Shown: positions 1 through 64,000 of the stretch, in pieces
Layout of the letters: the number at the start of each line of letters is the position of its first letter
How positions within the stretch are numbered: the first letter of the stretch is position 1
Assembly: GCA_905178155.1 (NCBI GenBank)
Contig: CAJINV010000002.1
Coordinates: forward strand, 1,029,809-1,093,808
DNA: 64,000 nucleotides
From: Amoebophrya sp. A120
Taxonomy: Eukaryota; Protista; Dinoflagellata
Direction: 5' to 3'
The notes under the pieces: generated by a model
The model's input: only the letters and a program-made list of their open reading frames with translations
Told to the model about the DNA's origin: nothing
Databases searched by the model: none
Translations under genes and position numbers: made by a program

Positions 1-3000
1 GGTACCAGTTGGTCCTACTTGTTGCTGGTGGTTTACAACTCCGCCGACAACACTACTATTACCACCAGCCACGCCGGATATCAAAGTAGAGCTCGCGGAT
101 TGATGCGTGCCGGCAAGATGACCAATCGGGTTAGCGAAATGCAGCCCTCCGAGTAGTTCCCGAGACTCCTTCTTGTTCTTGTTCGCTTGGAGCTTCTCGT
201 TCAGCATTTGCTGCAATTCCGCCGGCGTGAGCCCGTCGATCTTTTTCTTATTCGACGCCTCCAGGGTTCCTCGCGGCGGCTTGTCTAAGGTGCTGCTCAC
301 ATTCCGGGACAGATCGCTCTCCGTCGCGGAAGAAGCGGCGTTGGGAGAAGAGGCGTTGGCGAGGGGGGTGGTGAGACCTCCTTCTTTGGCAGTTGCAGTT
401 GCAGATGCAACACCTGCAGCTCGTTCCACAGCAGTTTTGGAAACCGCGACTCCAGATGCTGAGACTACCTCCGCCGAAGTTGCAGTAGCAGCAGCTGCAG
501 TGACAACAGCGGCCGAATTGTTTTGTTGCTCGCCAATTACATCCGCTGTCGGAGGACAAGTCGAGGTTTTGTTCTCGACAATATCCGTATGACAGTGCAC
601 AACTCCGCCTCCCCCCCATTTGCATAGCATGAACGGCAATACAAGCATCAGCAAGAATGCCGGATTTGCATGACAAATTTGCAGTGGAGTGTAATGCTAT
701 TTGGGCTACCAGAACTTGTCATGCAAACAGTGCCAAGAGGCAAGAGGTGGATTCGGTATTTTGCATGACAAATGAGGGGGAAGAGGAGTTGTTCACTGTC
801 ATAATCCGTTGTCGCGGTAGTCGTTGTGTTGTCGCCAGAGGTGCCGGAAGAAGCGTTGTCCGCTGAAGACGCTCCACCGGTAGTGGTCAAAACCAGGTTA
901 TCGACCGCTACGGTATATCAAATGCAAAAATGTCTGGGTCTGGAAGAATACAAGATTTGGTTGGTTGGTTGGGTAGCGCCTGTCGCCGGTGCAGGTCCCG
1001 CCCTCCATCGATTGCGATCCGGAGTAGCCGGACTTGTCATGCATGTTTCTCATGATCCATGATGCTTGTGATGCATGACCTTGCATCGCAGACATTTAGA
1101 GGGCTTCCTGATGCACCTTCCGCATGAGAAATGCTCTATCCGGGTAGCACAAACTGCTACTGCACCCCTGTTGCTTGTCATGCAATACAATTTTTTTTAC
1201 CGTCCAAGAATAGCATGACAAGTTGCATTCTTCCAGACCCAGACACTTTTACATTTGATACGGTAGTAGTCGTCGACGCGGGCGGATCCGAGACGGCTGG
1301 GGAATTCTGCTGCGTTCTTTGCTCCTTACCAGTAACTGTCGTGGCACGGCTGTCGTCCTGTTTTCGATTGTTTTCATTCCGATATTTAGCATGACAAACA
1401 TCGACTCGTCGAAATGACGACAGACAAGACACTACCACTAGTCAAAAATGCTCGTTATGCAATACAGATCTTGCCCTCCTAACCATCTCGCATCACAAAT
1501 GAATCCAGAATGATCGCCATCAATGCATTAAAACAAATAAACTCTCTATACGATTGGTGACTGGCTGTTGCCCACGACTCCTGTGCTCGAATTCAGCAGC
1601 GCTAGCGAATCGTCCGAACTTGTTAAGCCCAGCGTCGTGCTTTCCAAGCTGGGAAACTTCCGACAGACGATTTCGTCTTCCTCGTAGCTGTTTTCGCACG
1701 AGCTCACTCGCCCGTTTATGAACCCGGTAGAAGCCCGGGTCGTCGCCGTGGTCGCTTTGGACAGTTGCTGTTTGCACCGCTCCGGATCGCCGTCTTCGCT
1801 ACTGGATGACGAAGTGGCGCCGCCAACGTCCGTCTTCGTTGTGGACGAGCTCGCATCTTCCGTCATACCGGACTGCAGTTGTTTTTCGGTCACTGCATTA
1901 TTACCTGGCTTTTGCTCTACCGTAGGACCTTCTTCACTGCTAATACTTTCCTTTTCCGAAGAAGGCAGGTCAGTAGCAGCAGGCGCTGCTTGAGCAGATG
2001 AAACTACGGAGGACATCACAGCTGCGCCGGGGGCAATAGAACTAGCGTCCTTCATCTTGTTCACTGAGACCGACTCTACTACACCTGCAGTCACAGCACC
2101 ACCGCTGGCAATGTTGATAGTATTGACTGCAGCCGCTGCGTTTGCAGCTTGCGTTGCGGCGGCGGCGATCGCCACGGTCTGGGCGGAGGCTTTTATTGAC
2201 TTCGTGCGCTCCGCAAAGATGGACTGGATTTTGTCTTGTAATTTGGACGGATCCTGAAGCAGCTCTTTGTTCTGGGCGGTATTGGCAGCTGTGCCTGAGT
2301 TGTTGGCTGATGATGTCCCGTCGCCCTTGTCGTCCCCCTGCTGGCCACCTCCGTTATTTTGCGTGGAATTTGAAGATATGAAATCTAAAAATGTCTGGGT
2401 CTGGAAGAATGCAACTTGTCATGCTGATTTTGGATTCTAAAAAAATCTGTATTGCATGAGCAGCAAAGAGAGTCCAAGTTGTGCTACACGGAAAGAGCAT
2501 TTGTCATGCGGTATAGGCATCAGGAAGCCCTCACAAAATCTGTGATGCTAGGGCATGCATCACAGACATCAGGAGTCATGCAAAATGTGCATGACAAAAC
2601 CTAGCAATCTTCCAGACCCAGACATTTTTACATTTGATAGAAGAAGTGATGGTAAAACTTTGGATGTTATCCGCCCGAAGAGTCCCGACCATGGGAGCAC
2701 CAGCACCTGTTGCGGTACTACTCAGGTTCGTTTGAGACCCAGACTGCGGCAGTTGTTGGCTCTGCTGTTGCTGTAGCTGCATGTTGTAAGAAGTGCTGTT
2801 CGACGTAGCAGTTTGCTCAGTTGCAGTGGCATTGAGAGGACCAGTGGCAGACGTTTGTTGTGCTTGAGCTGCATTGAACGAAGTACCGAAGGATGCGGCA
2901 TTTCCCGTTCCCCCAAGCTGTTGCTGCTGTCCCGTCGCTGCTGTTGCTGTCCCACTCTGCATTTGCTGCATCGACGTTACCGCACCAGTAGACTGGAGGT

Positions 3001-4685
3001 TCAGATTGGACATACTATTCAAACCTTGCTGCTGTTGACCACCAGCAACTCCAGAGCCGTATTGCATCTGCTGCTGCTGGACGCCTCCAGTAGAACTAGT
3101 GCCCATCATGCTGCCTCCACCAGTCGTGCCACTACCGTACCCGCCAATGTTTTGCTGCAAGTTCGCATTGGATCCGGAGTTCATTTGGGAAGATGAAAAT
3201 TGGGCGGTGTTTGTTCCACCGAAATTCGACGTCCCTGACGGCTGGAACTGAGTGCTCTGCGCGTTCATGGTACTAGAAAATTGGTTTTGGTGCTGGCCGG
3301 AGGTCGTAGTTCCGAACTGATGAGAACTCTGGTAGTTGCTATTTCCCATTGCAGCAGCATTTTGGTTAATGCCGCCGCCACCGCCCATATGGTTCTGCAT
3401 GTTCATCTGGTTTTGCATGTTGCCGGACGTTCCGCCCATGATATGTGACGACATAGTATTATTGTTCCCCCCAACATAGCTGCTCGTGTTACCACCGCTA
3501 TGGTTGTGAAAGGAGTTGCTCTGGTGCATAGAATTTGCGGCTGCGTAGGAATTAGACATGTTCTGCTGCTGCTGAAAATTCCCAACTCCGCCACCCATTA
3601 TCAAGTGTAAAAATGTCTGGGTCTGGAAGATTCTGAGACTTATGATGCACGTTTTGCATGCGCCATGATGTCTGTGATGCCTGCCCTAGCATCACAGATG
3701 TTTTGAGGGCATCTTGATGCCTATTCCGCATGACAAATGCCCTCTCCGGGTAGCAAGAATCGCATTCCCTTTGCTGATCATGCAATACAGATTTTTTTGG
3801 AATCCGAATGCAGCATCACAAGTTGCATTTTTCTCTACCCAGACATTTTTGCAATCCATACCCATCATGCTCTGCTGATATTGACTGTTCATCATGCCGT
3901 TATGTTGACCGGAGGTATTTGATCCAAACTGGCTCTGCATCATGTTGCCATGATGTTGGCCGCTATTATTCCCACCACCGTGCATGCCGCTGTTCGCAGC
4001 TCCCTGATGCATACTGCTGTTGTACTGGTTTGAAACCATATTGGACGTCGACTGTTGGTCTCCCATGTGGTGCGCCGAACTATGGGCACTGTTGCTGGAC
4101 CAGGTGTGCGCCATGCTTTGCTGGTTTAGGTGGCCGGACGACTGCATGCTGTGTCCCATGTTGCCGGCACCGCCCATCGCACCAGAGCTGCTGTTGCCCA
4201 TGTTCATGCTGCTCATATCAAAACCAGAATTCTGGTTGTGCGAACCGTTGTTCATGCCGGTCATGCTGTGCGTGTTGCCCGCTACATTGGAACCCGAATT
4301 GTACTGGGAGGCGGTTCTGTTTATGTAGTTATTTGAACATTTTGGTTGTGTTTTTATGCATTCTTTTGTGAAACAATTCAAAAGCTATACCATGAAATAA
4401 ACCTGCTCGAGATTTAATACGCCAGAATTTGAAAGATGACTAGTACCCTTGTCCCCCCATCGCCCCCACGCCGCCCCCTCGCTGGTCAGCATAGCTCTCC
4501 TTTCCGCCAGGGCCAGCACTATTGCCAGCGTTGCCTCCTCCCGACCCGTTGTAGCGGCCCCAAACAGGATTCATTTGCGACACGGTGTTGGTCTGAAAAG
4601 TATTCACCATTTCCGCGGCGGGCTCCTGCGTAACCGTCGATGCGGGAGTTACCCCGCCGGAGTGGCTCCCGGCGGTCGTCCACAT
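1..4685 (-). CDS. Multi-exon low-complexity Q/N/S/G/M-rich hypothetical protein, 3' end runs off the window
   Basis: ATG at 4685. A GT-AG intron at 4317-4446 joins in phase 2. ORF frames 3692..4381, 2576..3604, 1546..2175, 1178..1438 and 648..890 join in frame when each introner plus 5 nt is removed. The frame stays open to base 1. Confidence 0.75.
588..803. mobile_element. Introner family B (TIR TATGACAGTGCACAACTCC)
   Basis: TIR at both ends, TSD ATCCG/ATCCG, removal restores frame. Confidence 0.9.
916..1260. mobile_element. Introner family A (TIR TATCAAATGYAAAAATGTCTGGGTCTGGAAG) with about 80 bp extra internal sequence
   Basis: TIR, TSD CGGTA/CGGTA, removal restores frame. Confidence 0.9.
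1383..1550. mobile_element. Degenerate introner-like intron
   Basis: TAT...ATA ends and three GCATKACA-type motifs. TSD decayed, but element+5 nt removal is in frame. Confidence 0.55.
2377..2639. mobile_element. Introner family A (opposite orientation to 916 and 3599)
   Basis: TIR, TSD GAAGA/GAAGA, frame restored. Confidence 0.9.
3599..3860. mobile_element. Introner family A
   Basis: TIR, TSD CCCAT/CCCAT, frame restored. Confidence 0.9.
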
Positions 4686-6757
4686 CTTTTTCCAAATCGA
4701 CTTACGTTACAAGAAACAGAGATTGTATTTTACAAAAAGTGCCGTGAAATAATAGAGCAGATGAAATCGTGCAGTAAATAATCTTCATGAAACAACTCGC
4801 AAAAGAATACACAACTACTCGCAATACTCCGATAGAATTTTACCGTTGAACAGCACTAAACTATTCTCCAACATAAAATTCTTTCCACAACTACAAATTA
4901 TTTTTCACAGAACAATTTACAATCTTTCGTAAAACTTTTTTTATCACAATGTAGATTCGAGGTGGTCGCTCTATTTGCCTTTTTCTAAAGCAAGGATAGA
5001 TACGGTTGTAGAGATTAATCGTAAAAAAGAAATCGCGGTAACAGATGCAAATGATCGTCTCGATTTTTTTTTTTTTGGTTTTTAGGTATTTTTTCTTTGA
5101 CAAAAGTATAATCTTCCAAAAGCAGCTATTTTGTCTTGCATAAACCTTATCGCTGTCTGATATAATGTTGAAATATGCTAGAAACCTTGCTCGCACTACT
5201 GAATCCTCTTTGTTCTTTCGTACTAGGGTCTAATTTCTTGTTTGCGTTTATTGTGCAGGCGTGAAGAAATTCTACTTCCTCCAGCTGTACTACGCAAGAA
5301 TGTTCGGTCTCCCCCTCCGTGAGAGAAATTCTTTCTTCACCAAAGGCGAAACACAAAGATTCCTGTGTCAGACAGCACCGTCAGACAGCACCGTCAGAAA
5401 GCACCTCGTTTTATTCCGCGATACAACTAGTAGAAGAGGGACAGTAACTAGACGACTTTCTCCGAAGTAAATAAGGTTCTTTTTCTAAACTAAGTAAAAG
5501 CGTAGGAGTGTCTACGCGACTTTCTTTTTAACAGTCTAGGATAATTTTTGGTATGAGTATTTTTAACAGCCACTCTGTAGTTGTGGTTGTCAAGGGAGTA
5601 AAGTCGCTGGGCGGGTGTCCGAAAAGGAGCTGGCTCTAACGATAGAAGCGCGCTTTTTTAGAGGTTTCTGGCTAGCAATATCTTGTTATCAGACCTTGAG
5701 GTTGTTGTGCTTTGTCAAGACAGTGAGCAGCTTGGTACAGGTACACAGAAAGAATAACAGAAAAAATTATGTCGAAGAAACGATAAGAGAGCCGCTTTTG
5801 ATAAAATCAGACTTGCGTGCCTACAGAAAGCGCGGTGCCGCTTCAGTGAGCCTGTAGCTAATATGCCACTTCTTGTACTAACAACAGGTCGCCCGAGGCG
5901 TCTCTACGCTCTTGTAGGCAAACAGGCAAAAGCTGTAAAACTGGCAGAGATAAGATACAGATCAAAATCAAAGGCGCGTGTAAATACGGTTGATGTGCTC
6001 TTCAAAATTGACAGATCACAGCAGGTACAGATAGCAGAGCCTCAGTAGTGGTCTTTCGTAGCGGGACAACAGTTAAAAAATCATTGATGAAAGTGAAACA
6101 AGAAGATATAAAGAGCGGCAACAAGAATCGCCTTGAGGGAAGCAGGAGTGTCTGCTTGCACTAATAGAAATTTATTTCATCAAACGGAGGAGCTCGGTGA
6201 GCTGAGCGAAGAAAAGAACTCGGCTTACTCTTGCTCCGTTTAGTATGAAGATTCTCAGCACGTAATATTGTGTCTCTTTGGTCCAATCTTACCACACAAC
6301 TCGAATTGAATCGGCGGTGGCCTCTTTAGATTCTCTTTCTAGATTTCTTCCTATAGAAAAACAAGGAAAAAAATCTAAAGCAGTAGTCAAAATGTTGACC
6401 ACGCACTCTACCTCCGGTGCGATAGAACCAAAACAATATTACTCAAAACTTTCTACTAGTGCGCTACACCGTGTGGTCACTTTTGGTGCTGTACTATTGT
6501 TCCTTTGCTAAATATTCTACAAATCCGTACTATGATATTTTCACTGCTCGAGCGAGAGCATAGTTTATACCGCAAAAATTTTCTAAAGCAAATAGCGCAG
6601 ACGGAGCTCCTCTCTTTATAAATACGTTTGGCTGATTCTACTGTAAAAAACTCGACACTATGGAAAAATATCGTAGCCCTGACCCTAACTAGTGAAAAAA
6701 TAAGTACGAAAATATCGAATATGTTCCCCTGCTCTGGGTGAAACTTGGCCTGTTGGA
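4686..6757 (-). promoter_or_regulatory. Putative long 5' leader, depleted of sense-strand ATG
   Basis: Only about 6 CAT triplets on + in about 2.07 kb, none between 5142 and 6081. No convincing ORF. Confidence 0.5.
5367..5405. repeat. 13-bp tandem repeat x3 (GTCAGACAGCACC)
   Basis: Read directly; one mismatch in unit 3. Confidence 0.9.
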
Positions 6758-7762
6758 TTAATCGCAAAGCGCCTTAGCATTAATTCATATTCAAAATGAT
6801 TTCAAAATGAATTCAAAAAGTCAACGTTTTTGACTTTTGGCTGCCCATGAAAATGCCGAATATTCGAACAAAATGAACGACGCGCCTCGGTTGTGGACCA
6901 TTCGCAAGCCCTATGCCGTGCGCTTACGCGGAGCATTTCGCTTGAAAAACGCAGCGCCACCATTTGAATGCGTCTCATTAGTTTGGGAGGGTGCTTGGCT
7001 TGGAATCGGCACGGCCACAAGCTCTGGGCCACGGCATGGCGGCTCAAGATTGAACCGCCAGGGTCCCTCTAAAACCCAACTGACAGACACCACGTCCGCC
7101 CAAAGCCACGACGCATGGGGCCAACGCAATTCCATTTCCGAGGCGGCCGAGAGGGCCCAGATGCACCCTCTCCCCTCGATTGATCGGGCCTGATTGGTGC
7201 CTAACATAAAACATGTCATGCCACAGACCACACCAATACCAGAGCGATCACGCAGAGTGCCCAATTTCATAAGGAAATTGGCGGGCCTATGCAATTTCAA
7301 AAAGAAATTGGCGACCTGAACGGAATTCAAAAAGAAATTGGCGGGGTTGATGGAATTCAAAAAGAAATTGGCGGCCCCGAGACAATTCAAAAAGAAATTG
7401 GCGGATCTGGGCAATTTCAAAAAAAAGTTGGGAATAAGTTGGAGACAAGTTCAAAATTAGTTGGGTCAGGGATTCTTAGTATGGGAAACAGAAAAAAGTT
7501 GGCTTCCAACTTATTTCCAACTTTTTTTTGAATCTGGCGAAGGGAGATTCCTCAAGACCTGGACCCTCTTGAGTTGGCGTGCTTTACTGCATGCCCCTTC
7601 AAGTACGAAATCCCCCATCCGAAGCGCTGTCGAGAAGCCTTTCGGTGTGAAGGTCGACCCTATCAATGCCCCGCAAGCTATACCCCAACACCCTGAAAGG
7701 AAGAGGGGCAGGAAGCGATCACGAATGAAAGCCTTTACACAAAAAGCGCCCCAACAGCTGGC
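6758..7762. mobile_element. Non-coding insertion 1 flanked by a 59-bp duplication
   Basis: 6699-6757 recurs as 7763-7804 plus 9355-9371 (split by insertion 2). Confidence 0.6.
7261..7431. repeat. 30-bp-period array with constant TTCAAAAAGAAATTGGCG core and about 10-12 bp unique spacers, 6 units
   Basis: Units start at 7261, 7291, 7321, 7351, 7381 and 7411. The last unit starts an inverted repeat with about 7505-7530. Confidence 0.9.
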
Positions 7763-8249
7763 AATAAGTACGAAAATATCGAATATGTTCCCCTGCTCTG
7801 GGTGGCATTTGATGGCAGCAATCCACCTCTTCGGGCGATCCACCTCTTCGGGCGTGCCTCTGCTCATCCGCCACAGGGCCTCCCAGCGCTGCAGAGCCCG
7901 CGGCGCCTTGAATTGCCGGGGTCGACTGCTGGCTCTGGGTCAGCTTCTGCAACAGCTGCCCTGTCCTTTTGTTTGCACTACTCCATTGCGAGCGAAGGGC
8001 AACACTCGACCAGCCGACCACCCAACCAGCCACCTCTCTCTCTTTGTTGCTAGAAGTCCTGCTGGGCCGACATCTTAACAAAAGCAAAGAGAAAGATACC
8101 TGCTAAGAGACGAGCACCCCGTGGCGAATAAAGTTCTACATAAAATATTTGCACTTCAGAAGCATGGTCGTTCCCGACCATATCCGCCGGGGCTGGCATC
8201 CCGGCTGCTGACTTCAGCAGGCTGCCTACTTTCTGCTTCCTTTGACATG

Positions 8250-8481
8250 GACGAACAAGGGTGGGTTACATCTGCTTTTTTTCAAAAAGGTCTAACCCCC
8301 GCTAGTGGGTGGGCACTAGCGGGGGTTAGCTTCGGACGAATGTAACCCACCCTTGTTCATTTGTTCTAGGATGAACAAAGGTGGGTTACATTTGTCTGAC
8401 CCTAACCCCCGCTAGTGCCCACCCACTAGCGGGGGTTAGAACTTTTTGGGAAACAGGCAACCTAACCCACCCTTGTTCGTC
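8250..8481. repeat. Nested palindrome: two hairpin arms in inverted (flip/flop) arrangement
   Basis: Outer IR 8250-8268/8463-8481. 16-bp stems 8292-8307/8314-8329 and 8402-8417/8424-8439 with complementary loops GGTGGG/CCCACC. Confidence 0.9.
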
Positions 8482-8991: not shown

Positions 8992-10299
8992 CACCCCTCA
9001 CGCGGATTGACAACCACAGCGACGCACCCAGGGGCCGCCCGCGTGGAGGACACGCATGCAGGAATTTTTGGCCCCCTAGATACCACCGGAAAAGTGCTTT
9101 TCTGTTCCCTCAGCACGAGCGGCCTTATTCAGCATTTTACTTCTCCATGTGCTGCCGCTTTTTCGCGTTGTTTTGCGCTGTAGTTTTTCTGTTTGTGATT
9201 TTTCAAACCGAAGCAACTGCCACGACCTACTTGCGGCCCCGCTTTGCCCTTTGGTTTTCGCGCTGGAACCCGCGTCAAAAAGTAGAATTGTGACCCCGTG
9301 CGTAGAATTGTGACCCAGTACGAAAATATCGAATATGTTCCCCTGCTCTGGGTGAAACTTGGCCTGTTGGAGTTGGTTTTGGAATTTGGTATTATATCTA
9401 GTTGATGGAAAATGGAAAATCAGAAGACGCGAAGCTATTTTTGGTGGCTCCTACTCGGGGTTTTGATTTTTCCCTTATGTGGTGACAACTAGCTACGGAG
9501 AGCTGCAGGAAATTAAGTAGGATCCGCTTCTGAGGACCCGTCGGGAAAAGAAAAATAGAAATTCTGCAAAGATCTTCGCGTAGGACCAAAATCGTAGTTC
9601 TTTTGTTTATGCTTATGCAGCCACCTTGAATTATACGCGTGGAAATGCACCACACGAGTTGATTTTTTATTTTTTGCAATGTATCTATTGTAACCTTCTA
9701 CAAACGATCTCTTCGCGATTGTTCAGAGCTTATTTTACAAGTATCTTTTAAACAAATTTCATAGAACTGGATGATGGAGGAAGAGGAGCAATGCCTCTAT
9801 TTTGTTGATAAATTTCATCCCATACAAAAGATGATGATGATGATGACGACACTGAGTTTTCGATTTTTAGTTTGGAACTCAAAGCAGCTATTGGCGGTTT
9901 CGGAGTTTGTGTTTGCTTATGCTCATGGAAAAAAGTACGTGAAAAAGGACTACGTAGTTCAAGAAAAATGACCTTCCTTGACTCTGATGTTGCGAAGCTC
10001 GTCGCACTGTGCGTATTTGTAGTTCTGTTTCTTCTGACAGCTTCAGATCAGGTCTCTATTCTACTCTCTCACATCTAAAATTTTGAGCGTTTCATGAGCT
10101 GTAGCTTTTGAATCTCGGTGGGTTGATGTGATAATATTTCGCGCTAAACTGCTGGATCGGACCTCAAGCTCATGCTGCCCTCTGGTATCCGGGGCTTCAT
10201 CTGCAACCTCCTCCTCGTTTTGTTTTACCCGTAGAAATAGAGTCACACTCGGAAATCTAGTGAAGAAACAAGCTTCCTTCTGTTGGAATGCGGCTGAGT

Positions 10300-12450
10300 G
10301 AGCGTTCCCGTAGTCGGCCTCCGATCAAAACACGCTAGCCGAGTGCACTGGTTCCGCCGGGCGGGGTCAAATCCAGACGTGGCAGCCCAGGAGGGAGGCT
10401 GCTGGAGCTTGGCCTGTGCTGTAAGTAAAGCTTGCAGGAGGCAGGCCCGCGGGCCACGACACGCGCGCGGCCTACGTGCCAAGAAAACTAACAACTGCCG
10501 AAACGGCGACGGACATTGCGACTCATCAATTACACCGCGCCAGGGGTGGCTGGAGTCACACAGCGGGCGCAGACAGAGACATCTGTCAGGGCCGCCCCCT
10601 CCTCCCAATGGCGCTTACGTTGGTTAGCGAGACAGAATCAAAGCGGGCGACGGCGCTAGCGATGTGCAGGGCAAGCACCCAGCCCCTGCGCGCTGCCCTC
10701 CGGCCCGGCTGGCGACAAAGGGGGCGGCCAGGCTGAAGGGCATGCCCGCCGCCCCCCTGCCTCGCGGGGCACGGCGGCCGACCAGCTAGCACCAGGGGGC
10801 GGCGGTGGAGACACAACCAGGACCGCCGCCGAGCCGCCCGCCGGGGACGGAGGCAGAAAAGCAAGGCGCGCGCGCCCGCTCGCCGCGGGCTAGCTAATGG
10901 GGTCCACTGGGGCCGCGCGCCTCACTGCCTTCGTTTCGCGCCGGCCCGCGCTCCCGCGCCGCGCCACTTTTTTGTTGTTTCGCTTCCACCCACTTGCGCA
11001 GGTTTCCGGCGGGCCGTCCATCGTCGGCAGACGCCGCGGCACTACAACCATAGCCCGCCGCCCCGCATGCCGGAGGACATGCAACCGCAGCCCCCGCCAC
11101 ACTAATAAGGCAAACAACGGCCGGGGCGAACGCTCTCTGCGGCTCGGTGCAGGTTCTTGGGCGGGCAACCCGCCCTGGTCGCTAGCCGCCCAGCGCCGCC
11201 ACCGCAAGGACCGCGCGAGGCAGGCAGCCACGGAGAACGAGGCACCGCTCCGGCCACTGGCTTCTCAAGCCGGTTCTTGGCTGGGAACAAGGCGAAACGC
11301 TCTCCATCGGTAGCTCTGAAGCAACTCGCATGCAGCTCTCCGTCTAGACGGACTTGCCTTTCATTGACAAATATACTTTTGTCTCAACATACATTACCAA
11401 AGCGACCCCTGTGGTCACTCAGTAAAGCTCGTCCGGAGCCACTCCAAAGCCCGCGTCCCTCATCCGCGATGATTTATTGGAGGTGCCAATCACTTTAGAT
11501 ATCCTACAGCAGTAGTACAGCCACTCCTTTACCTTCCTTTTTTCCTCACAAGTCAGCCTCTCGATTGGAACTGCAACTCAAAGCTGTGCCGGCAGATGAG
11601 CTTCAACGCCTGACAAAAGAACTCCCATCAGGCAAAATTCGTCAAACATGCCAGCCTGGCGCAAGTCATCGGCCGAATGCCATTCGCGGGCCCACCGGAA
11701 TGTGGTCCAAAAACAAGTCGCGTCTAATTAAGACGCACAAACAGGTCGCGCCACACGGGAGACACCACTGACTATCTAGGCTACGACTCCGGCCAAAGGG
11801 TCGGGTGCCGCGCCAGGAGGCGCACCAAACTAACACACACCCACGCACGGACGGGCGCAGGGGGCCCACACTGTCGCGGGCAACCACTTCACCCAAGCCG
11901 GCACTCACACCGTCACGAACTGCCGCCCCACGATGAAACAACGTTCGCGCGCGGGGGCGGCGGGCCGGCAAGGCCAAACGAGGACGCTGCGCAGCGCGGG
12001 CGTGGCACCGCACACGGCAGGCCATTCAGAAAGAAACCAAAAGCCGCCACAGGGCAACGAACGGCGGCCGGGCGAAAAAGCACGCGCCAGCGTTGGGCGC
12101 TGGCCCGCCGGCCGGCGCAGTCTGCCGGCGTGGGCGGGGGGGCGTCCCACCGGGCTGCGCTGGCGGCTTTACTGCTTGGCGGCGCGGGCGCCCTCTCCCT
12201 GTCGGTCGTTGCCTCCTGGCGCTGGCCTGTCTGGCGCGAAGCCTTCACGCGCGACGTCTTCCGGCTGTTCCCTCGAACAGGCTTCGGCGCAGCGGGGTCT
12301 CCCCCGGGCCTGACAGTAGGCGGCCGCGAAGCTCTGGGGGGAGGGCAACTCAGCAAAAGCTAGCGCCACTTCCAGGTGCCAATGTGCTGGCAACTTCCCG
12401 AAGACGCGGAATCACCGCGCTGCCGCCATTGCAGGAAGCGCGGTAGTCGG
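10300..12450. promoter_or_regulatory. GC/CpG-rich intergenic island (two lobes)
   Basis: Abrupt compositional shift; no introners; ORFs are Arg/Ala/Pro/Gly noise. Confidence 0.45.
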
Positions 12451-13535
12451 TCACTGTGAGGAAGGAATCTGCTTCTGTTGCAGCTGTCACATGCTTGCTC
12501 GCGGCGGGGAACAAGAAGGAGACACGCTCGTCATTGGGCGCTGCTAAGCCACTCCGCTCTCCATCACGCGCGGAATTGCTTTTCTTTCAGCACATCTCGT
12601 AGTTTCATAGATACATAGTAGAATGATCCACTCCTGGTACGCTCACGGCCTCCCTCCTCGTCACTAAAGTACAACCCTCTGCCGTGCCCGCCCCGGGGCG
12701 AAAACGGACCAACGCACGTCGAAAAACAAGAAAAGACAACCTCTGCTGGCGCTTCCTGCTAAACCCGCCGGAACCAGTGTTCGTGGAGGAGGGTCCGCTT
12801 CTACTCCCTGTTAACGTGCGGCATTACAAACCTGCTGAAACGCGGGGAGACAGTTGTGATGGCAACTTCGGACAACGATTGTACGTGCGTATCTATGGTT
12901 ACTGGTGTTAAAAACTCCAGTCAAAGCTCAATACTAGCCAGGTTCTTCGTCGGTCTTGTCCTTTGCTAATTGTTATGGTGGCAACATACTATTATTTTCC
13001 GTGATTCTAGTCTCTTGTTGGTAGAAGAAAACGAAAAGGTCGAAAACCATAGTGGTACTATCGATGTCAAATTACTGGTTTCTTTGCAGAAAAGCCGAAA
13101 CAAATTACATTTTTGGTCGTTAGAAGCAGGCATGGCTACCATGACACGTGCAGCTCCAAGTCAAGCTCACAGGAAAATTTGCATTTTTCACTCTCAGGCG
13201 TCGTTTCACTTTTTCATGCATTTCCATTTTCACTATTTTGACTTATCAATCTTACTGTTTTGTTTTCTACAGTCGATGAAAAACACTTTTCTCGGATGGT
13301 TTAAACTTCTGAAACTTGTCGATGAATGATTGAAATCTATTGCTAATTCTATACCGTTCTAGTACTTTCTGGTACTGTAGCTACTCCAACTTCTATTTTC
13401 ATTTTCTCCCCGCCTCTCCTGCCACAGAACCGCCATTTCCCGCGTCTCCTCCCCCACCATTATTCCCGTAGCCACCAGGAGTTGCTTCCACCTCATTGTT
13501 CCTCGGCTTCATCGAGAAGCACATCCCGAAACGGC

Positions 13536-13693
13536 TATGAACTGCAGAAGTGTCGTACTCGTATAAATGCATTTGCATTCATAAATATCCTCAGCATCAG
13601 AAATCAAATTTGTAATGCGGATATACGTTACGAAAAAGATTTGTAATGCATGACTGCAAAACCAATACGAGTACGATACTTTTGCAATGCATA
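13536..13693. mobile_element. Introner family C (TIR core GCAAAAGTATCGTACTCGTA)
   Basis: TSD ACGGC/ACAGC; empty paralogous site at 18535-18539. Confidence 0.9.
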
Positions 13694-13783
13694 ACAGCCA
13701 CCCGCTAACGATCTCCGCTTCCTTTCATTCAACTGCCAAGTGGATGTCTTCCCCACAATGTTGTCCGACTGCAGTTCTTTAAT

Positions 13784-52330: not shown

Positions 52331-52997
52331 TGACGTACCCCGTAGGCAGAGTGACAAGAACAGCGGCACGACGACAAAAATGCCACAGCAGGCATTCGCT
52401 TGACAGAGGCTCTCCACACTGGCATCCCTACATTTTTTTTTCAACTGCCACTTTGCTTCCTTGATAGATATGCTGGCTCACTCGTCGCCCACCCCGCTCT
52501 CCCGCTTACACAGATCACACACGACAATCATGTACTTATGTACACAACTACTCATCTGCATTTCGCTGTCCACTGTGCCATCCACTCGCAAGCCAATTTT
52601 GTTCATCGTATAAAGTAATTTTGCTCTGGTTCATCTTCACGGCGCACAAGATGCGGAAGCAAGAATTTAAAACAGAACATCGTCGAGATGAAACTTGAAA
52701 CAGTCTCACAGCACTCTTGTGTCTGCTCCTGCAGTTGCACGCAATAGTTTTGTTGTTGTTCATTGTGTAACGTGGGTTGAGCAGTGTAAAGCCGCTCCCG
52801 CCACGGCTGGACCTCTTGGAAAGAACTTCTGTATTCTTTAGGTTTCAAGTGTCCAAAAACTCATGTTCTTCATTCCGCATCACGACTTTCACATTCTTCA
52901 GCTAGCCAAAGAGGCGTCGGCGTCCATGAAAGGTGTAGAACTCATCTATCGTTGTTCCACCACCACATCATCATCATCACTCAACCCACAACCCCCT

Positions 52998-55900
52998 TCA
53001 CTTCAACTTCTCTCTCTCCTTCGGCCTGTATCCTCTCCTGGTCGGCCGGTCATTCGTGAATCGTATCCTTCCGTCCGTCTTCTTAATCGCGCCCGCCCTA
53101 TTCGGATCGTTGTTCGGAACTGTGGGGTTGTTCACGCCGAAGGTTCTCGTCGTGGTTACCACTGTTTGATCACCTCCAGCTCCACTCTGCCCACCATCTC
53201 CATTATTATCCTGTTCCAGTATTCCCAATTTTCTCGCTTGTTTCTCATTGTAGCCCATTTTGGAAATCATGCTACTTGTGTGCAAATACCCCAAAGAACT
53301 CCGCAACCGGATGATCTGTTCGTCCTTTTGGTCTTCCGTCAACCGGTCCCAAAAAATCCGGTGTATGGTCGCTGTCCGCGCCCCAAACTTGCTAAACATC
53401 GCCTGTTTCAGACTCAAAAACCCACCGGGAGTGTGCGGGACGACAGAGCAGTTGGCGTTGTTGGATTTGTTGTTTTATCCTGTGCAAAAGTATCGTACAG
53501 TACTCGTATTGCAGTCATGCATTACAAATCTTTTTCTTAGGGTAAATCAGCATTACAAACTTCACTGTCATGCTGTGAAAATTTGTGGTGCATTTATACG
53601 AGTACGATACTTTTGCAATGCATATGTTTCCTGCTTGGAACTGCAACTGCGGCCCCATCGCGGACATGCTGTTGTATTCCAGCGCGATATTTGGCTTCAA
53701 CAAGTGTCCCGCGAAGAAACAATGCTGCTCATCGAATTCCCGGCCGACCGACGTGTTGATGCTCGCTTTTATGAATTGCACAAGTACAACTTTTATGATC
53801 GCACCACCGGTCCAAATTATCATGCCAAACTTGCATGACAAATCTGGTTCCTGAGGTATTTCGGCATGACAAATTTCATTTGTCGTGTTGAGGACATTTG
53901 TAATGCGAATCATGCTAGAGCTAGTAAGATGCTTTTGCAATGCATAGCTTTCGTCTGTGTCCGGTTCAACGCCTTTTCCACGTCCAGCTGTAATTCGTCC
54001 GACCCCTGCAGCTTATGCATTGCAAAAGTACCGCACGACCCGTAGTGGCGGCAATAAGTACTGCATGACAGGTCTATCTGCGTACGCTGATTAGCATTAC
54101 AAACTCCAGTGTTAATCATGCTAGGCAATGGCAAACTTGTATTGCACTTCCTACTTAACAAGTACGACTCTTTCACAATCCCTACGGCTGCGCTTTCAGC
54201 AACATCCCATCCAGCCAGAACTCGTGCAACCGCTCCTGAATCCACATCGGGCAGGCCCGTTTGGTTTCGATCTCGATATCGCGGTGGTCCTCGGAAAATT
54301 CGTAGGCGTCGCAGGGGTGCTGTTGTTCGTCGTCGTGGTTTTCATCGTGCTGCTGCTGGTCACCGTCTTCTTGGTCATGTTGTGCATCACCAGCGTGTCC
54401 TCGTGGTGTGGCAGCCTCATTCACCTCCTCGTCGTTTTCCGCATCTGCTTCCGCATTGAAGGCAGCGAAGTCGGACGAAGTATCGTCGTTTAGCCGGTCC
54501 CCCGGGGAGGTGGAGGAAGAAGAAGCAGCGGAAGATGAAAAATCTGTATAGTTCTCGAAGTCCATCATGGGATGGTCTCCGGCGTTTTGCTGCATTCCGT
54601 CCCTGCAGCTCAGGTGGCTCGCCTCCCTTCGCAGCTTGGATTTGCGGCCCCGTGACGACGCAGAGGTGGCAGACACACTGCTTCTAGTGGTACTACAGCT
54701 AATATCCTCGGTTGTATCTTCGTGGTCCTCGGTGGGTGTTTGATCTTCTACTCGTGAAGATGCTGTGCTGTGATGTCCGGGCACCGAGGCTGACACATTG
54801 ACCGCATCTGAACCTGGATCGTGGAGGTCGTCGTGCTCATCTTCGGCGCCAGTGTTTCTACTGTCTGAGGTTCCTTTCAAAGGACTCCTGCGACTTCTCC
54901 TTCTGCTTCTCGTGCTAGCGTTCCTCGCTGCATCTGCATCAGAAGTTATTTGCGTTTCGTCGTGTGATGGAGAAGTTGATGCTGAGGAAGAAAACATTTT
55001 TTCCCCTTCCTCCCGAAGAATTTCATCGTCGTTCAAATCCGTCCGATCAGAACACTCAAACTCATCTCTGTTCTGACCCCAAAACGCTCCCGTAGTTTCC
55101 TGCTCGTGCCGTATTCTCATCTCCAACCTCTGTTCGTCGAAGCAGGGACTCTCAAACCCGATGGGGACTGGTTTCGCGAGCTGCTTCTGGAGTTTCTGTT
55201 TCGTAGCGGTTGTACTGTTTGAGTTTGTCAACATCCCGGACGCGAAAGAAGGCGTGGCTGCCGCTCCATCATCGGATTTCCAACCCAATTTCGCCTTCCA
55301 CCACTCCTTCCGCCTTGTATTTTGCAAGTCCCGGTAAGTTTTCCGCGTCATTGCGGTGCGGATTTCAGTAGGAGCCTCTGTAGTTGAAGTAGAACTGTCG
55401 TCCTCATGAGCAGCACATCCACCTCTAGGCGCAGCACTCGCAGATCCTCCAGATGCTTTGTCGTTGCTTCTGGTACTGTTCGACGGAGGTTTATTCTTGC
55501 TGCTTCCAGAAGATGAAGGTCCTGTTGCACGACTTATTTCCACAAAAAACGGCATCTTCGGTTTCAACACGTCCAAGGAGTACAGGGTCATGTAGATATA
55601 GTACCCCGTCCACCCGCACGCATCCACTTGCTCCCGACTTTGAAACGCCCGACAGCACGCCTCCATGAATAAAGGGAGATTTGTGTCCCAGTGTTGCATC
55701 ATCACACAGGAAAACATGATCTGGGCCCAGAAGGTCGCTTCTTCCGGTTCTATTTGGTCAAAACCTTCAATTTCTTCCCCGGTTTGCGGATCCCGCATGA
55801 CAGGTTCGCCTTCTTGAACCGGCGGCGGCGGGAGAAACTTCGCGACCTCATCCACTAATCTCGGGAACAAGCCGGAGAAATCCCGCTTCATTGAAGTATC

Positions 55901-56890: not shown

Positions 56891-57279
56891 TTTATTGGTT
56901 GTCAGTTTGCTGGAAGCTATACAACGCTGGCTAAGTGCGCAACGCCGCACAACGGCCCGAGAGCGGACCACGATGGCGCCGCGCCGGATTTCATTCTGAT
57001 CGCGCCATGGTCATCACTCAACTCGCATACAGAAATACAAATAACGGCATGGGCTGTGTACTAGGAACTTGTAAACATTAAACCCATATAGCAGCAGCAG
57101 GGATACGAATATTAACATTAGTAGATCAACGGCAAGAACCCCAGTGGGCGATCTCCAAACAGAACAAGGGATCACAAGGCACCGACACTGTGCTTTTTGT
57201 TCGTGCATAGCCCCTTTGGGAGTGCGACAGAGGAACAAACATGGATGGCCAGCCTAGACCGGTAAAGGGAAGCGCCGCG

Positions 57280-58735
57280 CGTCGCCGTGGGGGTCGCAAG
57301 ATTCCATATCTTACGCACATACTTCGGCACGCCGTCTAGTCTCGAGTAAAGCGCGAGGAAGAGTGGCGCGGAGACGCATTTTCAGGTCGAAACGCACCCA
57401 CCTGCGCGCACGCGGTGGACGGTCAGGGCGAGTGAGCGAGCCGAGGGAGCCAAGGCAAATGCGGCAGGTCCATTGTTCTCGGATACGAACCGGGACCCGC
57501 GCCTCGCCCGAAGAACTTTCTTTCCCACCTTCCCTGGCAGGCCTGCCCCGCCCGCCGGCCGGAAAACAGGCGGGACACATGGGGCGCGGGCATGCAATAC
57601 GGGGCGCCCGACCTTCCAAGCGATACATACCTACGTACGGGCCGGCTGGAAGGCACACCGGCCGGCCCGCCGCCAACCATGCCAAGCCAACCAAGCCAGC
57701 CAAGGCCTCGAGGGGCGGCACAGGGGGCGCCGGGCCACAGAATACACACAGGGAGCCGCGCAGGCGGGCGCCCAGCCAGCAGCCGGGCAGGCGGCTGGGG
57801 CCGCTCGCTGGCCCGGGGGTAAGGTAGGGCGCGGCCGGGGCCGAACGTGCGCCATCGCTGAGCCGTATAAGTTTCCCGCCCAATGGAACCAGCAAACGGG
57901 GCGGCGAACCGCTCGCCGCTTCTGCCAACTTGAACCCAAGCGATTTTGTCCAACCGAATGCGCTGCGAGCGACGCAGGCACGCAGGAAAGCTTACCGGCG
58001 CGCCTTCCGGGCCGGCCGGCGGCGCCACGCCCGCGCGCACGAGGGGCAACGAACCCGGCCGCGAAGGAAATGCTCCGCGCCCGGCGCTTTGGCTCTGCCC
58101 GGCCGGGGGCCGCATCGATCTGGGCGGGTGCGCGTCCCTTGACAGACCCAACGCGGGCCCGACACATCCCCCAGCCGCCTTTCCAAACCCGGCGCGCCAT
58201 AATTCCTCCAAATCGCCATGGGGGCGGCGGGATTGTCACACAAGACACAACTGACCAAGCAACCCACAGCGCCCCCCTACCGCGTGCGGCTCTGGGTCCG
58301 ATAGCCGCGCCCATCCTCCGCGCTCTCGTGGGTCGCTGCAGGTGCCCCGACCTTGCCCCGGAGTCGCTTCGTTGGTTGCTAATCACCCGCGGCCCGCGGG
58401 TCGATGGCTCGCGCACAGTGACCGAGTTTCGGTGGATGTGCGGCTTCATGCCCGATGCCTGGAGCTCAAGGCGGTCCAGGTTCGGGTGCGCGAATTAATG
58501 AGGGGCGCGGTCGGCCAATATGTCGGCCGGCTTCCGCGGGCGCCCCTTGTAGATAGTCGCCCGGCTGCGGCCTCAAATTTTCACGCGGGCCGCACGCTGC
58601 CAAGGGCGCCGGCGATCGACGGGGGGGGGGGGGGGCGGGCTCGCTTTAGCCCTGGCGCCGGCCAACGCTGGCCGACCCCGCCGGGCCTCACGGATGGAAG
58701 CACGCAAAGAGGCCGCCCTCCGAGCTGTTTCCGCT
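57280..58735. promoter_or_regulatory. GC/CpG-rich island upstream of the RAP gene
   Basis: Composition and position. Confidence 0.45.
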
Positions 58736-59291: not shown

Positions 59292-62200
59292 TCATCCGAC
59301 AATCTATGGCGTTCTCAAACGTTACATTCTCAACTGTTACATGAATTTGTGATGCAAGAACGGCAAAACTAAAAGGGGTGGCCTTGCGCGTATTGCATGA
59401 CAGATTCGGCGCAGATTCTGAGCCTGTTTGGCTCTTCGCGAATTTGTCATGCGAAGCAGCTTGATCGTGTCAATTCTGATTGTAATTTTGCATGACAAAT
59501 CATGTAACAGTTGAGAATGTAACAGTTGAGAACGCCATACAATCCTGCTGTCGAAGTAATTCTCCTTCCACAAAGAGGCTAAAAATGCGACATTAATCTC
59601 TTCCACCGAGAAGTCCTCCATTTCCGGTTTGGATGTAGTTCCGGTTTGATCATGTCCTGCTCTCATCCGAAACCCAAATAACCCCCGTTCGTCCCGCAAT
59701 CGGTTGAACAGGTTCCGGCTGATTAGGAGTTCTGCTTTGTTCCCTCGGTGATCTTGAAGTAGATCTCGTGAAGATTCAGATTCTCGTAACAAACCAGTAC
59801 CACTACCAGCGGTCGTGGTGGACAATGCAGCGAGACCACTTCGACTTGTTCCAGGATCTGTTGAAAATAAATCTTGGTCCTCCTCTTCTTGTGGTCCTGT
59901 TCCGTCCAACATTTGTTCCGCTGTAGTTCTTGTTTTCGATGGTCCAGCGCCTGTAGTGATTTTTCCCGATCCCGACATGCTCCTGGTGTCATCTTCATCA
60001 AACAAGGGAAACGCCACGTACTCTTCAATCGGGATCGTGGTGGTTCTGCAGGTTCTGGTGGTCGTGTCGTGTGAGCTGTGGCGAGCATTTGCAGTCGTGA
60101 AGCGCTTTTCTGATGCGAATACACCTTGTTGTAGTTCTCGCAGCATGCAGATGGTACCGTAGGGGTACAACGATGAACTGCTCGAGGGTTGAAATCCTCC
60201 TCGCCGCCCAAAATTAATGAACTCAGAGTTGTCGTCCTCACCACCATCCCGCCGACGAGATGTTGACTGCGATAGAATTTGTGCGCAGTGGTGGCAAGAC
60301 GTGGTGCTGGTGGTGTTGCTGGAGGAACCGCCCCTGGATGCAGTGTAGATGCTTTCTTCATGCTCCTCGTCGTCTTGTGCCTCAACATCTACCGAAGCTG
60401 GTAGTTCTTCCAAAAGCTGTCCTGATGTGCTAAGATAAGAAGCCTCCCGTGGCCCACGTGACGAACTACTGCCGGCCAATGCAAGAGGAGCCACGTGTTG
60501 TTCCTCTTCCGGTTCCTGAGAATGAAGTAAAGGGTCAGCACGTCGTGAAGAGGACATCGACGGGTCTCGGATTCTCATCCGGAGGAGGGATTCCGCCAGT
60601 TTTCCATCGACGGAAGGAGGCCCGCCGGCTGCTCCACAGCATGCTGAACTACCTCCCGCTGCGACGGCGCCAGAAATTGTGCTAGTATCTGTTGTGCAAC
60701 CGCCCGAAGAACCACCACTCGTCCCGAGGGCGGCCTGGTGCTCCGAAGGTAGAACCTCCACGTCCTGCGTTCCTCTCCTCCAGGATTTTTTGTCCCCACT
60801 GCCACTGCTAGCCCATATTAATCCACTCATGACTTGCCACCAGGTGGGCGGAAGGAGCGCGCTCGCTGCTGTTGCACAGGAGAATGCAGGTGCTCCACCT
60901 GAGCATGAAGAACAACCTTGGTGTAGGTGGCCGGACATCGTCCTACTTGTCGAGGAACGCGAGGAAGTCGTGCCCTGTTGTCGAGCTCTGCGTGGTCCAC
61001 CTCTCTCGTCCTCGCCCCTCCGTTCCGGTAGGTGGCCGGCTTGTTCATCTGTGTCAACATCTTCACACGGAGAAAACCACTGCCGTGGATCGGGGCACCA
61101 GGAGGCGCTGCACAGTTGCGGCGAACTGGAACTACTGCTACTGCGTATGCAATACAAATTTACTGTACATGTACAAAATGCATCACAAATTTCACCGACT
61201 TGGAGCATGCCACTTGTCATGCTGAGTAGAATTAAAGGAAAGCTTTGTCATGCAGAAACCGCATTGGTACATGTACAGTATGAAATTTACTGTGGATACT
61301 GCTAGGAGGGGCATGTTCACCACTCCGCCTCTCAACGTTATCATACCTCTCCCGACTCACCAATAATCCAGCCAAAATCCGCGTTTTCGAAAACAACAGC
61401 ACCCCCCGATTGCTGATCAGGGCGAAACAACCAGCATATGCTGAGAAAAAACGTCCCCAGCCCAGAGTTGTCATGCGAATGCGCAATGACAGAAACATTT
61501 GCAATGCGCATCCCCATGAGAGGCATTTCCAATCGTGTTTTGGCATTTGTAATGCCGTAACCAGGATGAGAAAGTGGCTTTCTCATGCGGCTGCCCGTGC
61601 TAACCAGCACTACACTGCAGATGGAAATTCGTCATGCACAACTCCCAAAACTTGGAGATTTCTGTTGCAGATTTACCAACTTGACTCTGAGGTGCTGGGG
61701 ACGTTTTTGCCCAGGATAAAACCCCGTGCACCGTCACATCCACGAACTTCGGCAGTGTGGGGTCCGGGACCTGTTGCGGAAAATTCGTCCTCTGTGCCGG
61801 GGTTTTCTTCCGCAAACGCGTTTTCTTGAGATAAATTTTCTCCGGCTCATGTTCTTCACTGGTGTCTACTTCACTGCGGGGAATCCTGCCACTGCTGCTC
61901 TGTTGAGCACGACCATCTTCGTCATATTCTTGTTCATCATGGTCTACTGCTGCTTCCTCTGGAATTTCCCTTTCTTCCGGTTTCTCTTGCATGATTCCGT
62001 CCAGAATGGTCAGCAACTTCTTTTCCTTTTCCGAATACAGGTCCTCTAACGTGAGAGGGCCACGTCGGCGTTGATGTTCTAGTTCTTCTTCCTGTGTCGT
62101 GCCGCGGCGGCTTCGGGTGTTGTTGAGCGTGGAAGAAGCTGCAGATTTCCTGGTTTTAATTTTCTGCTTGCGTTTTCTCGTTTCTACTTGTTCTCCTCCC

Positions 62201-64000
62201 TGTTGCTCCGACGTAGTTGTCCCTCTAGGCGTCATCATGAATTTCCACATCTGGCTCATTCGCTCCGGGAAAGAATATGATCCATGCTGCCCATCTGCCA
62301 ACCTTGCTCCTTGTTCCCTTGATGTAATTCCGTGGTCCCCGTCAGGAGTTGCTGCAGCAGCGTGACCCAGTTGCCTCCGGGGGCCTTGACGACGTTTGGC
62401 ACTGCTTTTGTAGTCCCGTTTTCTCTGCTGTAGGTCTCGTTGAAGATTTGACATTGACGCTGATCCCTGCTGCCGCCCTGATTGATGTTGAACATCTGAC
62501 AGCACACGGCGTTGTTCCCGGTGGTTATTTGTGCCACGACAGGTTCGTTCTTGGCCACAGCTAGGCAATACCATCATCTCCGGTATCTTCAATACCGGCG
62601 GTGGCGATTCTTGTTCTGTTGCACGACGAGGACGGGCGATGACGGCCGTAGGATTTTTGCCAACATTTGGTCTCGCCGTCCTCGACGGCCTTTGCCCGAC
62701 GCCGAGGAGTTGCTCCGCTACTAGTCTTTGGCGCAAAAGCTCCTCGATGTTGCCGGAAGCTGCTGCACCAGAACTGGTAGCTGCCTGAACACGTACTAGC
62801 CTTGGAGTGGAGGACAGAGGAGGAGCAGGTACTACTTCTGCACCACCACGGTCAACATTGAAGATTCTTGGCACAGCAGCAAAAGTAGAGCTGCCAGAAG
62901 CCCCGCCTGCAAGAGGAACTGGCGCTCCACGCGGACTCGTAGCAGGAGCACGCGATGTTGAAAGAGGCCCGGATGTTAAAGTAGGGGATTGTTGGACGTC
63001 GAGCTGCTGGCCGTGAAGATCTCCACCTGCATGGCCCATCACGACCCCCTCTAACATAGAAGTCGGCGGTCGGTCGTGTATGTGGTCATTCGAAATAAAG
63101 GCGACCTGGTGAAGATTTGGATGTTGTGCCGCAGCTATTAAAGCTTCTGTAGATGAAGTAGAGGAGGAGGAGGAACTCGTCGAACCAGAAGCACGACCGG
63201 CAAGATTTTTGTCAGCACCACCTTGTTGTTGTCCGATCGTCCCACGGCCAGATGAAATTTTTATCCCGAGTTGTTCATCTTGCAATTCGTCCCTGATTTC
63301 ATTCCTGATATCGACAAAGTCGCTATGAACTGCAAAAGGAAAAGTATCGTACTCGTATAAATGCATTACAAATTTTCTCAGCATGAGAAATAAAATTTGT
63401 AATGCTGATTTACCTTAAAAGATAGATTTGTAATGCAAGACTTGCAGTTATACGAATACGATACTTTTGCACAGGATAGTCGCCTCTGTCCCACAATTTC
63501 CGCAGAACCTCGTTTTTGATGCGCACCAAGTTCTGGAAATTCGCATCCAGTCTTGAGGAATCTGGTTCCTGTCGCAGGGACGAAGATGAAGACGCGCCAA
63601 CAGATGAAGCGTGTAGTCCCCGATCATCGTTGTTTCTTGCACATGGAGGTGGATCTTCTGCTTGTTGCACTATTCCCATGATCTGTGGGGTCGTGCTGCC
63701 GAGGTGGAGCCGGTCTTGCGCACGGGATAAAGTAGTTCTTGTTGGCTTTATCCCCACCAGTTGCCCGCTCTCTTCGCAATACCAAGCAGACAAAAATGCC
63801 TGGTCAGTTGCTCGTGCTAGTTCAACATCCAAAGAGATGTCCGATGAGAACGCGGGGGCGCCACAAGTGCCTGACGGCGCTGAAGCTGATCCGCCGCCAC
63901 TATAACTTTCTGGGCCAGGACCAGGAGAAGATCCTTGTCTCGCCATCTCCTCCACCGATGGCGCAGCACTTTCTACTTCCCCAACCGCTTCATCGTCTTC
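59292..64000 (-). CDS. Large low-complexity hypothetical protein, 5' end outside the window
   Basis: ORFs 63410..63955, 61600..63384, 61232..61546 and 59337..61220 join in frame across four introners; stop TGA at 59292-59294. Confidence 0.7.
59305..59539. mobile_element. Introner family D, 235 bp
   Basis: TIR, TSD CAATC/CAATC. Confidence 0.9.
61146..61298. mobile_element. Introner, singleton family (TIR core TACTGTACATGTAC)
   Basis: Imperfect TIR, TSD CTGCG/CTGCT, frame restored. Confidence 0.8.
61437..61718. mobile_element. Introner, singleton family (TIR core AAAAACGTCCCCAGC)
   Basis: Imperfect TIR, TSD decayed, element+5 nt removal in frame. Confidence 0.65.
63324..63478. mobile_element. 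Introner family C
   Basis: TIR, TSD GTCGC/GTCGC. Confidence 0.9.

Follow-up and report, generated by a model that had tools for sequence, protein, structure and literature searches.

In the dinoflagellate Amoebophrya sp. A120, introners are already known (PMC7789003; PMC12130899). The accessible portions of PMC7789003 describe their inverted repeats as TAT followed by seven less constrained positions and then three or more As, accompanied by short direct repeats, and report U1 to be missing in A120; the text there finds no clear splice signature, with the border position variable or unknown, and states as open how the tens of thousands of non-canonical Amoebophrya introns move and are spliced. 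PMC12130899, likewise in its accessible portions, adds an A120 introner family with terminal inverted repeats (TIRs) and open reading frames (ORFs) like those of long terminal repeat elements. In DNA transposons at large (piggyBac/piggyBat, Tol2, Tag1, Ac), subterminal arrays of transposase sites are a general feature according to the portions of PMC11707139 at hand. Here, we analysed a 64-kb window of A120 (the whole stretch of 64,000 nt; contig CAJINV010000002.1, positions 1,029,809 to 1,093,808), whose introners share an internal motif, strictly GCATKACAAA and more broadly GCAWNASA, the latter usually followed by AAT. We consider it probable (roughly 0.6) that this motif is a double-stranded DNA docking site, arranged in helical repeats, for one shared putative mobilizing protein of all the non-autonomous families, and that splicing depends on the element ends instead.

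The window elements fit the published description in their TAT inverted repeats, A-run, 5-bp direct repeats, mostly non-canonical splice sites and co-oriented host genes. A scan of the window that was blind to the motif recovered elements that start with TAT, end with ATA and are flanked by 5-bp duplications; their length is ~105–345 nt, and nearly all TIRs read TAT-S-N6-AAA with a 5-bp target-site duplication (TSD), contrary to the initial annotation of this stretch, in which the TIRs of different families were held to be unrelated. What sets them apart is the motif itself: the text and supplement parts of PMC7789003 at hand mention no common internal motif, although figure logos might show part of one, and the motif strings are absent from the 12 searched of the 14 supplement files of PMC12130899. 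Literature searches returned no description of the motif or of the splice register, and the listed papers that contain the 10-mer concern unrelated subjects.

A larger sample was taken from one metagenome contig set with one TIR pattern, yielding at least 142 loci (746 kb, partly overlapping). Three of them align with window exons at 91–99% identity, so the sample represents a close relative of the window organism. Structure calls gave 623 elements, 563 of which were placed in 14 families, and family hidden Markov models (HMMs), requiring neither TIR nor TSD, gave 693 copies from the window and the relative; family 0 (called family C earlier) is over-sampled by the TIR search pattern. Both end triplets are perfect in 594 of the 623 structure-called elements (the triplets being partly a search criterion), and 439 of the 693 homology-called copies have a perfect 5-bp TSD. 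Within the window, the curated set comprises 54 element or intron intervals (10,555 bp, against 53,445 bp in the remainder): 47 came from HMM matches, one weak match was removed, two borders were mended and eight intervals were added by hand; those at 1383, 20866, 21526 and probably 20221 were chosen partly for their motif content, without RNA confirmation. Excision of the element leaves an open frame in 429 of 435 cases. In the genes examined the long ORFs lie on the minus strand, and the Pfam matches of window ORFs are ordinary host domains. Empty sites were found both in a duplicated segment of the window and in comparison with the relative, where the elements L115:48-201, L115:570-620 and L126:301-448 are missing at window sites ~18860, 19220 and 225; being filled in the relative and empty in the window, they indicate that insertion differs between strains.

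The strict motif occurs 73 times in the window (39 on the plus and 34 on the minus strand), compared with 0.40 ± 0.64 in 100 shuffles, all of which stayed below 73. All but two of these matches lie inside the curated intervals (71; 6.7 per kb), the two outside corresponding to 0.037 per kb, and in 6,460 bp of AT-rich sequence between genes there is no strict match and one broad one. The broad form is found in all 14 family consensuses and in 80–100% of members, in every one of the 54 curated window introns, as well as at all eight junctions of one RNA-like contig. The earlier claims that the motif is common to all introner families and scarce in exons and GC islands are partly borne out, exceptions being one strict and one broad match (26859, 26905) in an exon that an RNA-like contig spans unbroken (26628–27008). 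The idea that the N7 segment of the TIR is the motif itself was rejected, as N7 varies within families. Likewise rejected was a link to viral contigs, in which two TIR patterns had 0 matches and a motif-pair pattern had 12, mostly 33-bp coding-style repeats whose AT-rich contigs matched no family strongly (best E 0.003). Two viral contigs (L143:3001-3041 and L148:2968-3008) carry an apparently non-coding CATGAC repeat cluster with two motifs 31 bp apart, probably by chance.

The geometry of the motifs is regular. Consensus motifs that point the same way and lie no more than 70 bp apart form 36 pairs, 20 of them spaced 31–33 bp (mean 31.8 bp, equivalent to 10.6 per turn across three turns), while the fullest 3-bp window in 5,000 permutations held 11 pairs; the preferred spacing is therefore not the 20–30 bp first proposed. 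Tail-to-tail pairs cluster at 15–16 bp (7/23, P = 0.001), and head-to-head pairs show no spacing cluster (P = 0.30). Outward motifs lie 33–35, 41–45 or 53–56 bp from the element ends, and for outward offsets of up to 56 bp the best period is ~10.4 (P = 0.003–0.01, with a free period and one value per family). Both outermost motifs point outward in 8 of the 14 families, and the remaining five families besides family 0 have them in the same direction at start and end, or inward; the inward arrangement described for family C does apply to both of its outermost motifs, but to that family alone. In several families the outermost motifs sit at mirrored offsets. Such face-of-helix regularity suggests that a protein binds double-stranded nucleic acid.

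On internal tree branches, the motif core changed at 0.8% and the spacer at 4.3%, and a motif so much better kept than the spacer across families is under selection, that is, lineages that jump keep it. After insertion the picture differs. Taking the mismatch between the two TSD copies, assumed identical at insertion, as an age clock, the decay slope of the motif is 1.1 times that of the inner TIR (95% interval 0.69–1.94) and 0.69 times that of the spacer (0.40–1.01). With conserved columns defined on half of the copies and mismatches counted in the remaining half, copies with 5, 4 and 3 TSD matches had mismatches of 2.7, 4.7 and 9.0% in the motif and of 3.0, 4.6 and 9.1% in the inner TIR; overall, the motif (3.6%) and inner TIR (3.8%) stand beside unconstrained end bases (3.5% and 3.0%) at half of the TSD mismatch (7.4%). 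Since motif mismatch is close to that of the inner TIR, the motif does not outlast the TIR in recognizable copies, and constraint on it after insertion is at most weak.

The splicing signal appears to reside elsewhere. Eight segments in the interval 30628–32520 are missing from one contig of run X4, and 18952–19121 is missing from one contig of run X1; in the DNA-like run X5, a contig reads through two of these segments without a break. Seven of these nine junctions are non-canonical and two are readable as GT-AG. Register 1 (N/TAT...ATA-NNNN, the slash marking the cut), with the cut one base before TAT and four bases after ATA, is the sole register that fits all seven non-canonical junctions. 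It is pinned by three of them. Intron 30997–31210 allows registers 0 or 1 only and intron 31244–31406 registers 1–5 only, which together fix register 1. In 566 copies with a TSD match of at least 3, T at +2 changed once versus 17 times for its mirror base (P = 1e-4), A at −7 changed 3 versus 20 times (P = 4e-4) and A at +3 changed 3 versus 11 times (P = 0.056). This near-invariance exists in transcript orientation only, and interior substitutions are strand-balanced; because the T+2 and A-7 asymmetries run in opposite directions and the interior is balanced, they are not accounted for by mutation bias. Wobble pairing in a hairpin was rejected as a source of the −7 constraint, as it would presumably tolerate A-to-G at that position, contrary to the data. 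AG stands at the acceptor in only 7.8% of copies, and Table S4 of PMC7789003, as far as accessible, has T at +2 in all 18 predominant non-canonical splice types of both strains. The splicing signal thus likely comprises three bases near the two ends of the intron, with a likely spliceosome-like reading of N/UA at the intron start and an A at −7 that may serve as the branch point. The undescribed splicing code postulated earlier therefore has a counterpart, but at the element ends and not in the motif. As a side observation, of the seven GT-AG introns, confirmed or candidate, four also have A at −7 (20866, 21526, 22143 and 24371, minus-strand acceptors), too few to test.

Taken together, we picture the following. 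A transposase or integrase complex, or a host cofactor, would bind several motif sites on one DNA face, and the bound complex would pair the element ends and insert the element with a 5-bp stagger. Selection would keep the motif in lineages still jumping and relax once a copy has landed, after which the host might still put the motif to use. With the splice cut one base before TAT, every intron would begin N-U-A, like GUA; with the other cut four bases after ATA, the first A of ATA (−7) would act as a branch point without AG. If so, many introner families would be clients of one machine, the motif would be a defined bait for finding the mobilizing protein, and the fixed register with its three strand-specific bases would turn the reported lack of a splice signature into a testable rule by which introns open with N/UA, lack AG and carry their candidate branch A at −7.

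The initial annotation preferred a host splicing factor that reads the motif on pre-mRNA as an intron-defining code, which we now regard as improbable. The occurrence of the broad motif in every curated intron and at every junction of the eight-junction contig would suit such a factor, as would the reported lack of U1, but the strand data do not. Gene direction was called from codon use of the flanks for 618 of the 693 copies (of 47 window copies, 43 had local scores that agreed with the minus strand; local calls within a locus agreed in 437 of 483), and element orientation relative to the transcript departs significantly from 1:1 in none of the 14 families (lowest P = 0.056), including family 3 with its six co-oriented motifs (27:19). 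On the RNA strand, the reverse form stands alone in 77 copies and the forward form in 63, with 12 copies having neither, so that a single-strand reader would need to recognize a word and its reverse complement, with 140 of 618 copies offering one form only. Hints of strand preference exist: the reverse form is intact in 69.5% versus 66.4% for the forward (P = 0.08), the first reverse motif in 77.5% versus 70.6% for the last forward motif (P = 0.07), weak copies show a reverse-form excess (97 versus 74), and in homology-free clusters the reverse form on RNA prevails by 16 versus 6 (P = 0.05; 26 versus 13 with a looser mask), a bias that loss of the 3′ half on conversion to GT-AG could also yield. 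Against this, residual single matches are balanced (149 versus 138) with no peak in their distance from an upstream GTA, no motif column is significantly strand-asymmetric after 1,425 tests, unlike the end bases, and decay after insertion is near neutral. Strand-specific motif retention, as expected of a splicing enhancer, was not seen in family copies, and the weak bias is confined to the homology-free clusters. Moreover, candidate GT-AG introns without the broad motif exist at 22143–22324 and 24371–24435, predicted from sequence only. The sole strongly asymmetric interior column (column 21 of family 0) adjoins the search pattern and was treated as ascertainment. Pairing of forward and reverse motifs in RNA, which would lengthen the TIR hairpin and bring the splice sites together, is very improbable: intact elements do fold strongly (z −5.5 and −7.8), some stems pair motif copies and the mirrored offsets would agree, but the consensus motifs of families 3 and 8 are co-oriented only, the folding of four TIR-less introns, two of which have RNA confirmation, does not exceed that of shuffled sequence (z −0.8 to +0.6), and pairing does not require one sequence common to all families. 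Least credible of all is that the motif survives, without function, from a single ancestral element; the end structure common to all families makes common descent likely, but the ~5-fold greater conservation of motif columns over spacer on internal branches contradicts a relic, and motif positions differ between families.

Unlikely, though the least so among the alternatives, is a host DNA or chromatin protein that binds the motif, is exploited by the elements to move and marks intron DNA in transcription with a weak continuing benefit. Strand symmetry and helical spacing fit it equally well, and the decay slope against the spacer lies below 1, though its interval reaches 1.01. What speaks against it is that decay in the conserved columns of the motif resembles that in the inner TIR and in unconstrained end bases, that AT-rich intergenic DNA (6,460 bp) lacks a strict match, and that GT[AG]AG[TA] donors (GTAAG/GTGAG-type) are followed by no motif excess (22/269 sense versus 22/259 antisense, at low power); an excess was seen for GTAT-type donors alone, one of eight patterns tried (38/698 versus 17/649 antisense, P = 0.009). 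Rather doubtful, too, is a bolder version of the docking-site reading, in which one protein reads the phased motifs, moves the introners and, in addition, tags them for a spliceosome lacking U1, which would cut at N/UA and use the terminal-ATA branch A, −7 from an AG-free acceptor; if true, any insertion, in either direction, would be a perfect intron.

Several observations weigh against the docking-site reading itself, and some of them favour the host DNA protein. No transposase was found among the 39 window ORFs scanned, nor is one reported in A120 in the accessible portions of PMC7789003. A scan for long elements gave seven rows, of which one alone was inspected, showing no transposase-like ORF by eye; this 1.1-kb element (L006:504-1608) has TAT...ATA ends, a perfect TSD, motifs in its left part and GC-rich repeats inside. 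Nor did an autonomous partner sharing these ends and sites turn up in the window or in the <1% of the related genome covered. The end-offset period is broad, 11.0 nearly equalling 10.4 (R 0.755 versus 0.779), and shifts to ~9.5 when three larger offsets are added; many motifs lie mid-element and not near the ends only; and the families are partly related, so counts across them are not independent and geometry counts are inflated. In two clean orthologous pairs between window and relative, the motif has 0/65 substitutions versus 13/167 in the spacer (P = 0.02), one pair having a 6-base deletion that still left the motif; over all three pairs compared, the figures are 7/95 versus 25/259 (P = 0.68), the third (18957–19121 versus L115) having lost one motif in the L115 copy. 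All three RNA-confirmed TIR-less introns retain the motif, in line with the earlier claim of persistence, and two TIR-less introns carry it at 31-bp spacing (1383–1550 and 21526–21638). Of the two introns cited for that claim, however, both keep TAT...ATA ends: 1383–1550 partially matches family 1 (E 1e-4), and 32404–32522 does lack a TSD but is readable as a canonical GT-AG intron. The reverse-form excess of homology-free clusters belongs here as well, as does the RNA support, which consists of two contigs of one study from runs only guessed to be RNA.

The features of the window are listed in the table below. The gene split by 12 introners has a layout that we take to resemble a carboxylic acid reductase. 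Segmental duplications pair 12780–13800 with 17770–18700, including filled and empty sites for two elements, and 9420–10140 with 14200–14960. At 19270–19427, the window and the relative (L116:1-209) have a common right flank and different elements, family 0 in the window and family 1 in the relative; the window copy bears a family-1-type terminal 14-mer, present in no more than two family 0 ends, which suggests replacement in place. GC-rich islands of 1–2 kb without introners lie between co-oriented genes at 10200–12500, 15200–17500, 23200–24000, 29000–30050, 33900–35000, 38500–39500, 50400–52400 and 57200–58700. An intergenic sequence of ~36–50 bp is present three times (6701–6760, 7767–7803, 9320–9372), and an inverted repeat with 111-bp arms (8250–8481) is unrelated to introners.

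Table. Introners, introns and related features of the 64-kb window
Positions	Feature	Family	Strand or gene	Remark
588-803	element	4	minus-strand gene	
916-1260	element	1	minus-strand gene	with insert
1383-1550	decayed, 3 motifs		minus-strand gene	two motifs 31 bp apart; removal opens frame; no RNA coverage
2377-2639	element	1	minus-strand gene	
3599-3860	element	1	minus-strand gene	
13536-13693	element	0		duplicated segment; other copy 18480-18676 with empty sites
13784-14100	element	5		same duplicated segment
18957-19121	element	0	-	imperfect TSD; 18952-19121 skipped by RNA-like contig
19270-19427	element	0		
19511-19672	element	0		
19731-19886	element	0		
~20221-20334	predicted GT-AG intron with motif			from sequence and frame
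20394-20587	element	0		decayed
~20866-20968	predicted GT-AG intron with motif			as above
20994-21148	element	0		
21226-21460	element	7		
~21526-21638	predicted GT-AG intron with motif			as above
21922-22068	element	0		
22360-22621	element	1		
24833-25049	element	4		
25116-25220	element	0		short derivative
25267-25481	element	2		
25542-25711	element	9		
25774-26081	element	5		
26156-26311	element	0		
26859-26914	two exonic motif matches		-	MBOAT-like ORF
27679-27930	element	1		
28463-28714	element	1		
30629-30791	intron, TIR-less, non-canonical		-	element 30633-30790; TSD lost; 2 motifs; register 0 or 1
30838-30963	intron, canonical GT-AG, without TIR		-	2 motifs, one each way
30997-31210	intron	2	-	element 31001-31209
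31244-31406	intron	0, decayed	-	element 31248-31405
31476-32333	three spliced introns	0	-	elements 31480-31645, 31845-32000, 32169-32332
32403-32523	spliced intron		-	readable GTAT...ATAG; TSD absent; two motifs, one broad and one near; fold not significant
39905-48800	gene with AMP-binding and NAD_binding_4 domains		-	split by 12 introners of families 0, 1, 2, 4, 5, 7 (next 12 lines)
41067-41335	element			
42016-42270	element			
43448-43588	element			
43745-43901	element			
44170-44421	element			
45312-45547	element			
45731-45879	element			
45934-46085	element			
46196-46508	element			
46565-46772	element			
47140-47374	element			
47928-48167	element			
53476-53624	element	0		
53770-53946	element	0		
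54014-54184	element	0		
59305-59539	element	7		
61146-61298	element	0		
61437-61718	element	3		six co-oriented motifs in family consensus
63324-63478	element	0		

Repeated sites are also found at the ends of Tn7 and Mu, both of which make 5-bp duplications. The same duplication length is made by the Ginger2/TDD elements TDD-4 and TDD-5 (PMC2836005, accessible portions); membership of Ginger was nevertheless rejected, for the TSD falls within the 4–5 bp of that group, but Ginger ends are TGTNR and those here TATS, and no integrase ORF was found among the 39 window ORFs. In SOS splicing, as the accessible portions of PMC12779559 describe it, TIR-flanked DNA transposons likewise leave mRNA at non GU-AG sites. 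That process is imprecise and needs TIR pairing, however, whereas here one register fits all seven non-canonical junctions, single end bases are strand-constrained and TIR-less introns are still spliced; given the single register, the kept frame and the TIR-less splicing, we do not regard the introners as SOS substrates, although contigs would hide rare variants. Introns of Yarrowia lipolytica have a branch motif a few bases from the 3′ splice site (PMC13309789, accessible portions), and this short branch-to-acceptor distance makes A at −7 plausible as a branch; Yarrowia keeps ACTAAC and YAG, while the introners here are without AG and their branch remains a candidate. The closest parallel is with miniature inverted-repeat transposable elements (MITEs) and other DNA transposons, which, in the accessible portions of PMC11707139, have repeated short sites inside their ends that are kept in active lineages. 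The introners here differ in having no known cognate transposase and in that one motif extends across 14 families that differ in body and inner TIR, in both directions and over the whole element. Even so, they carry repeated, conserved internal sites with a fixed geometry, as MITEs do, and by this analogy the motif array may work like the subterminal site array of a MITE.

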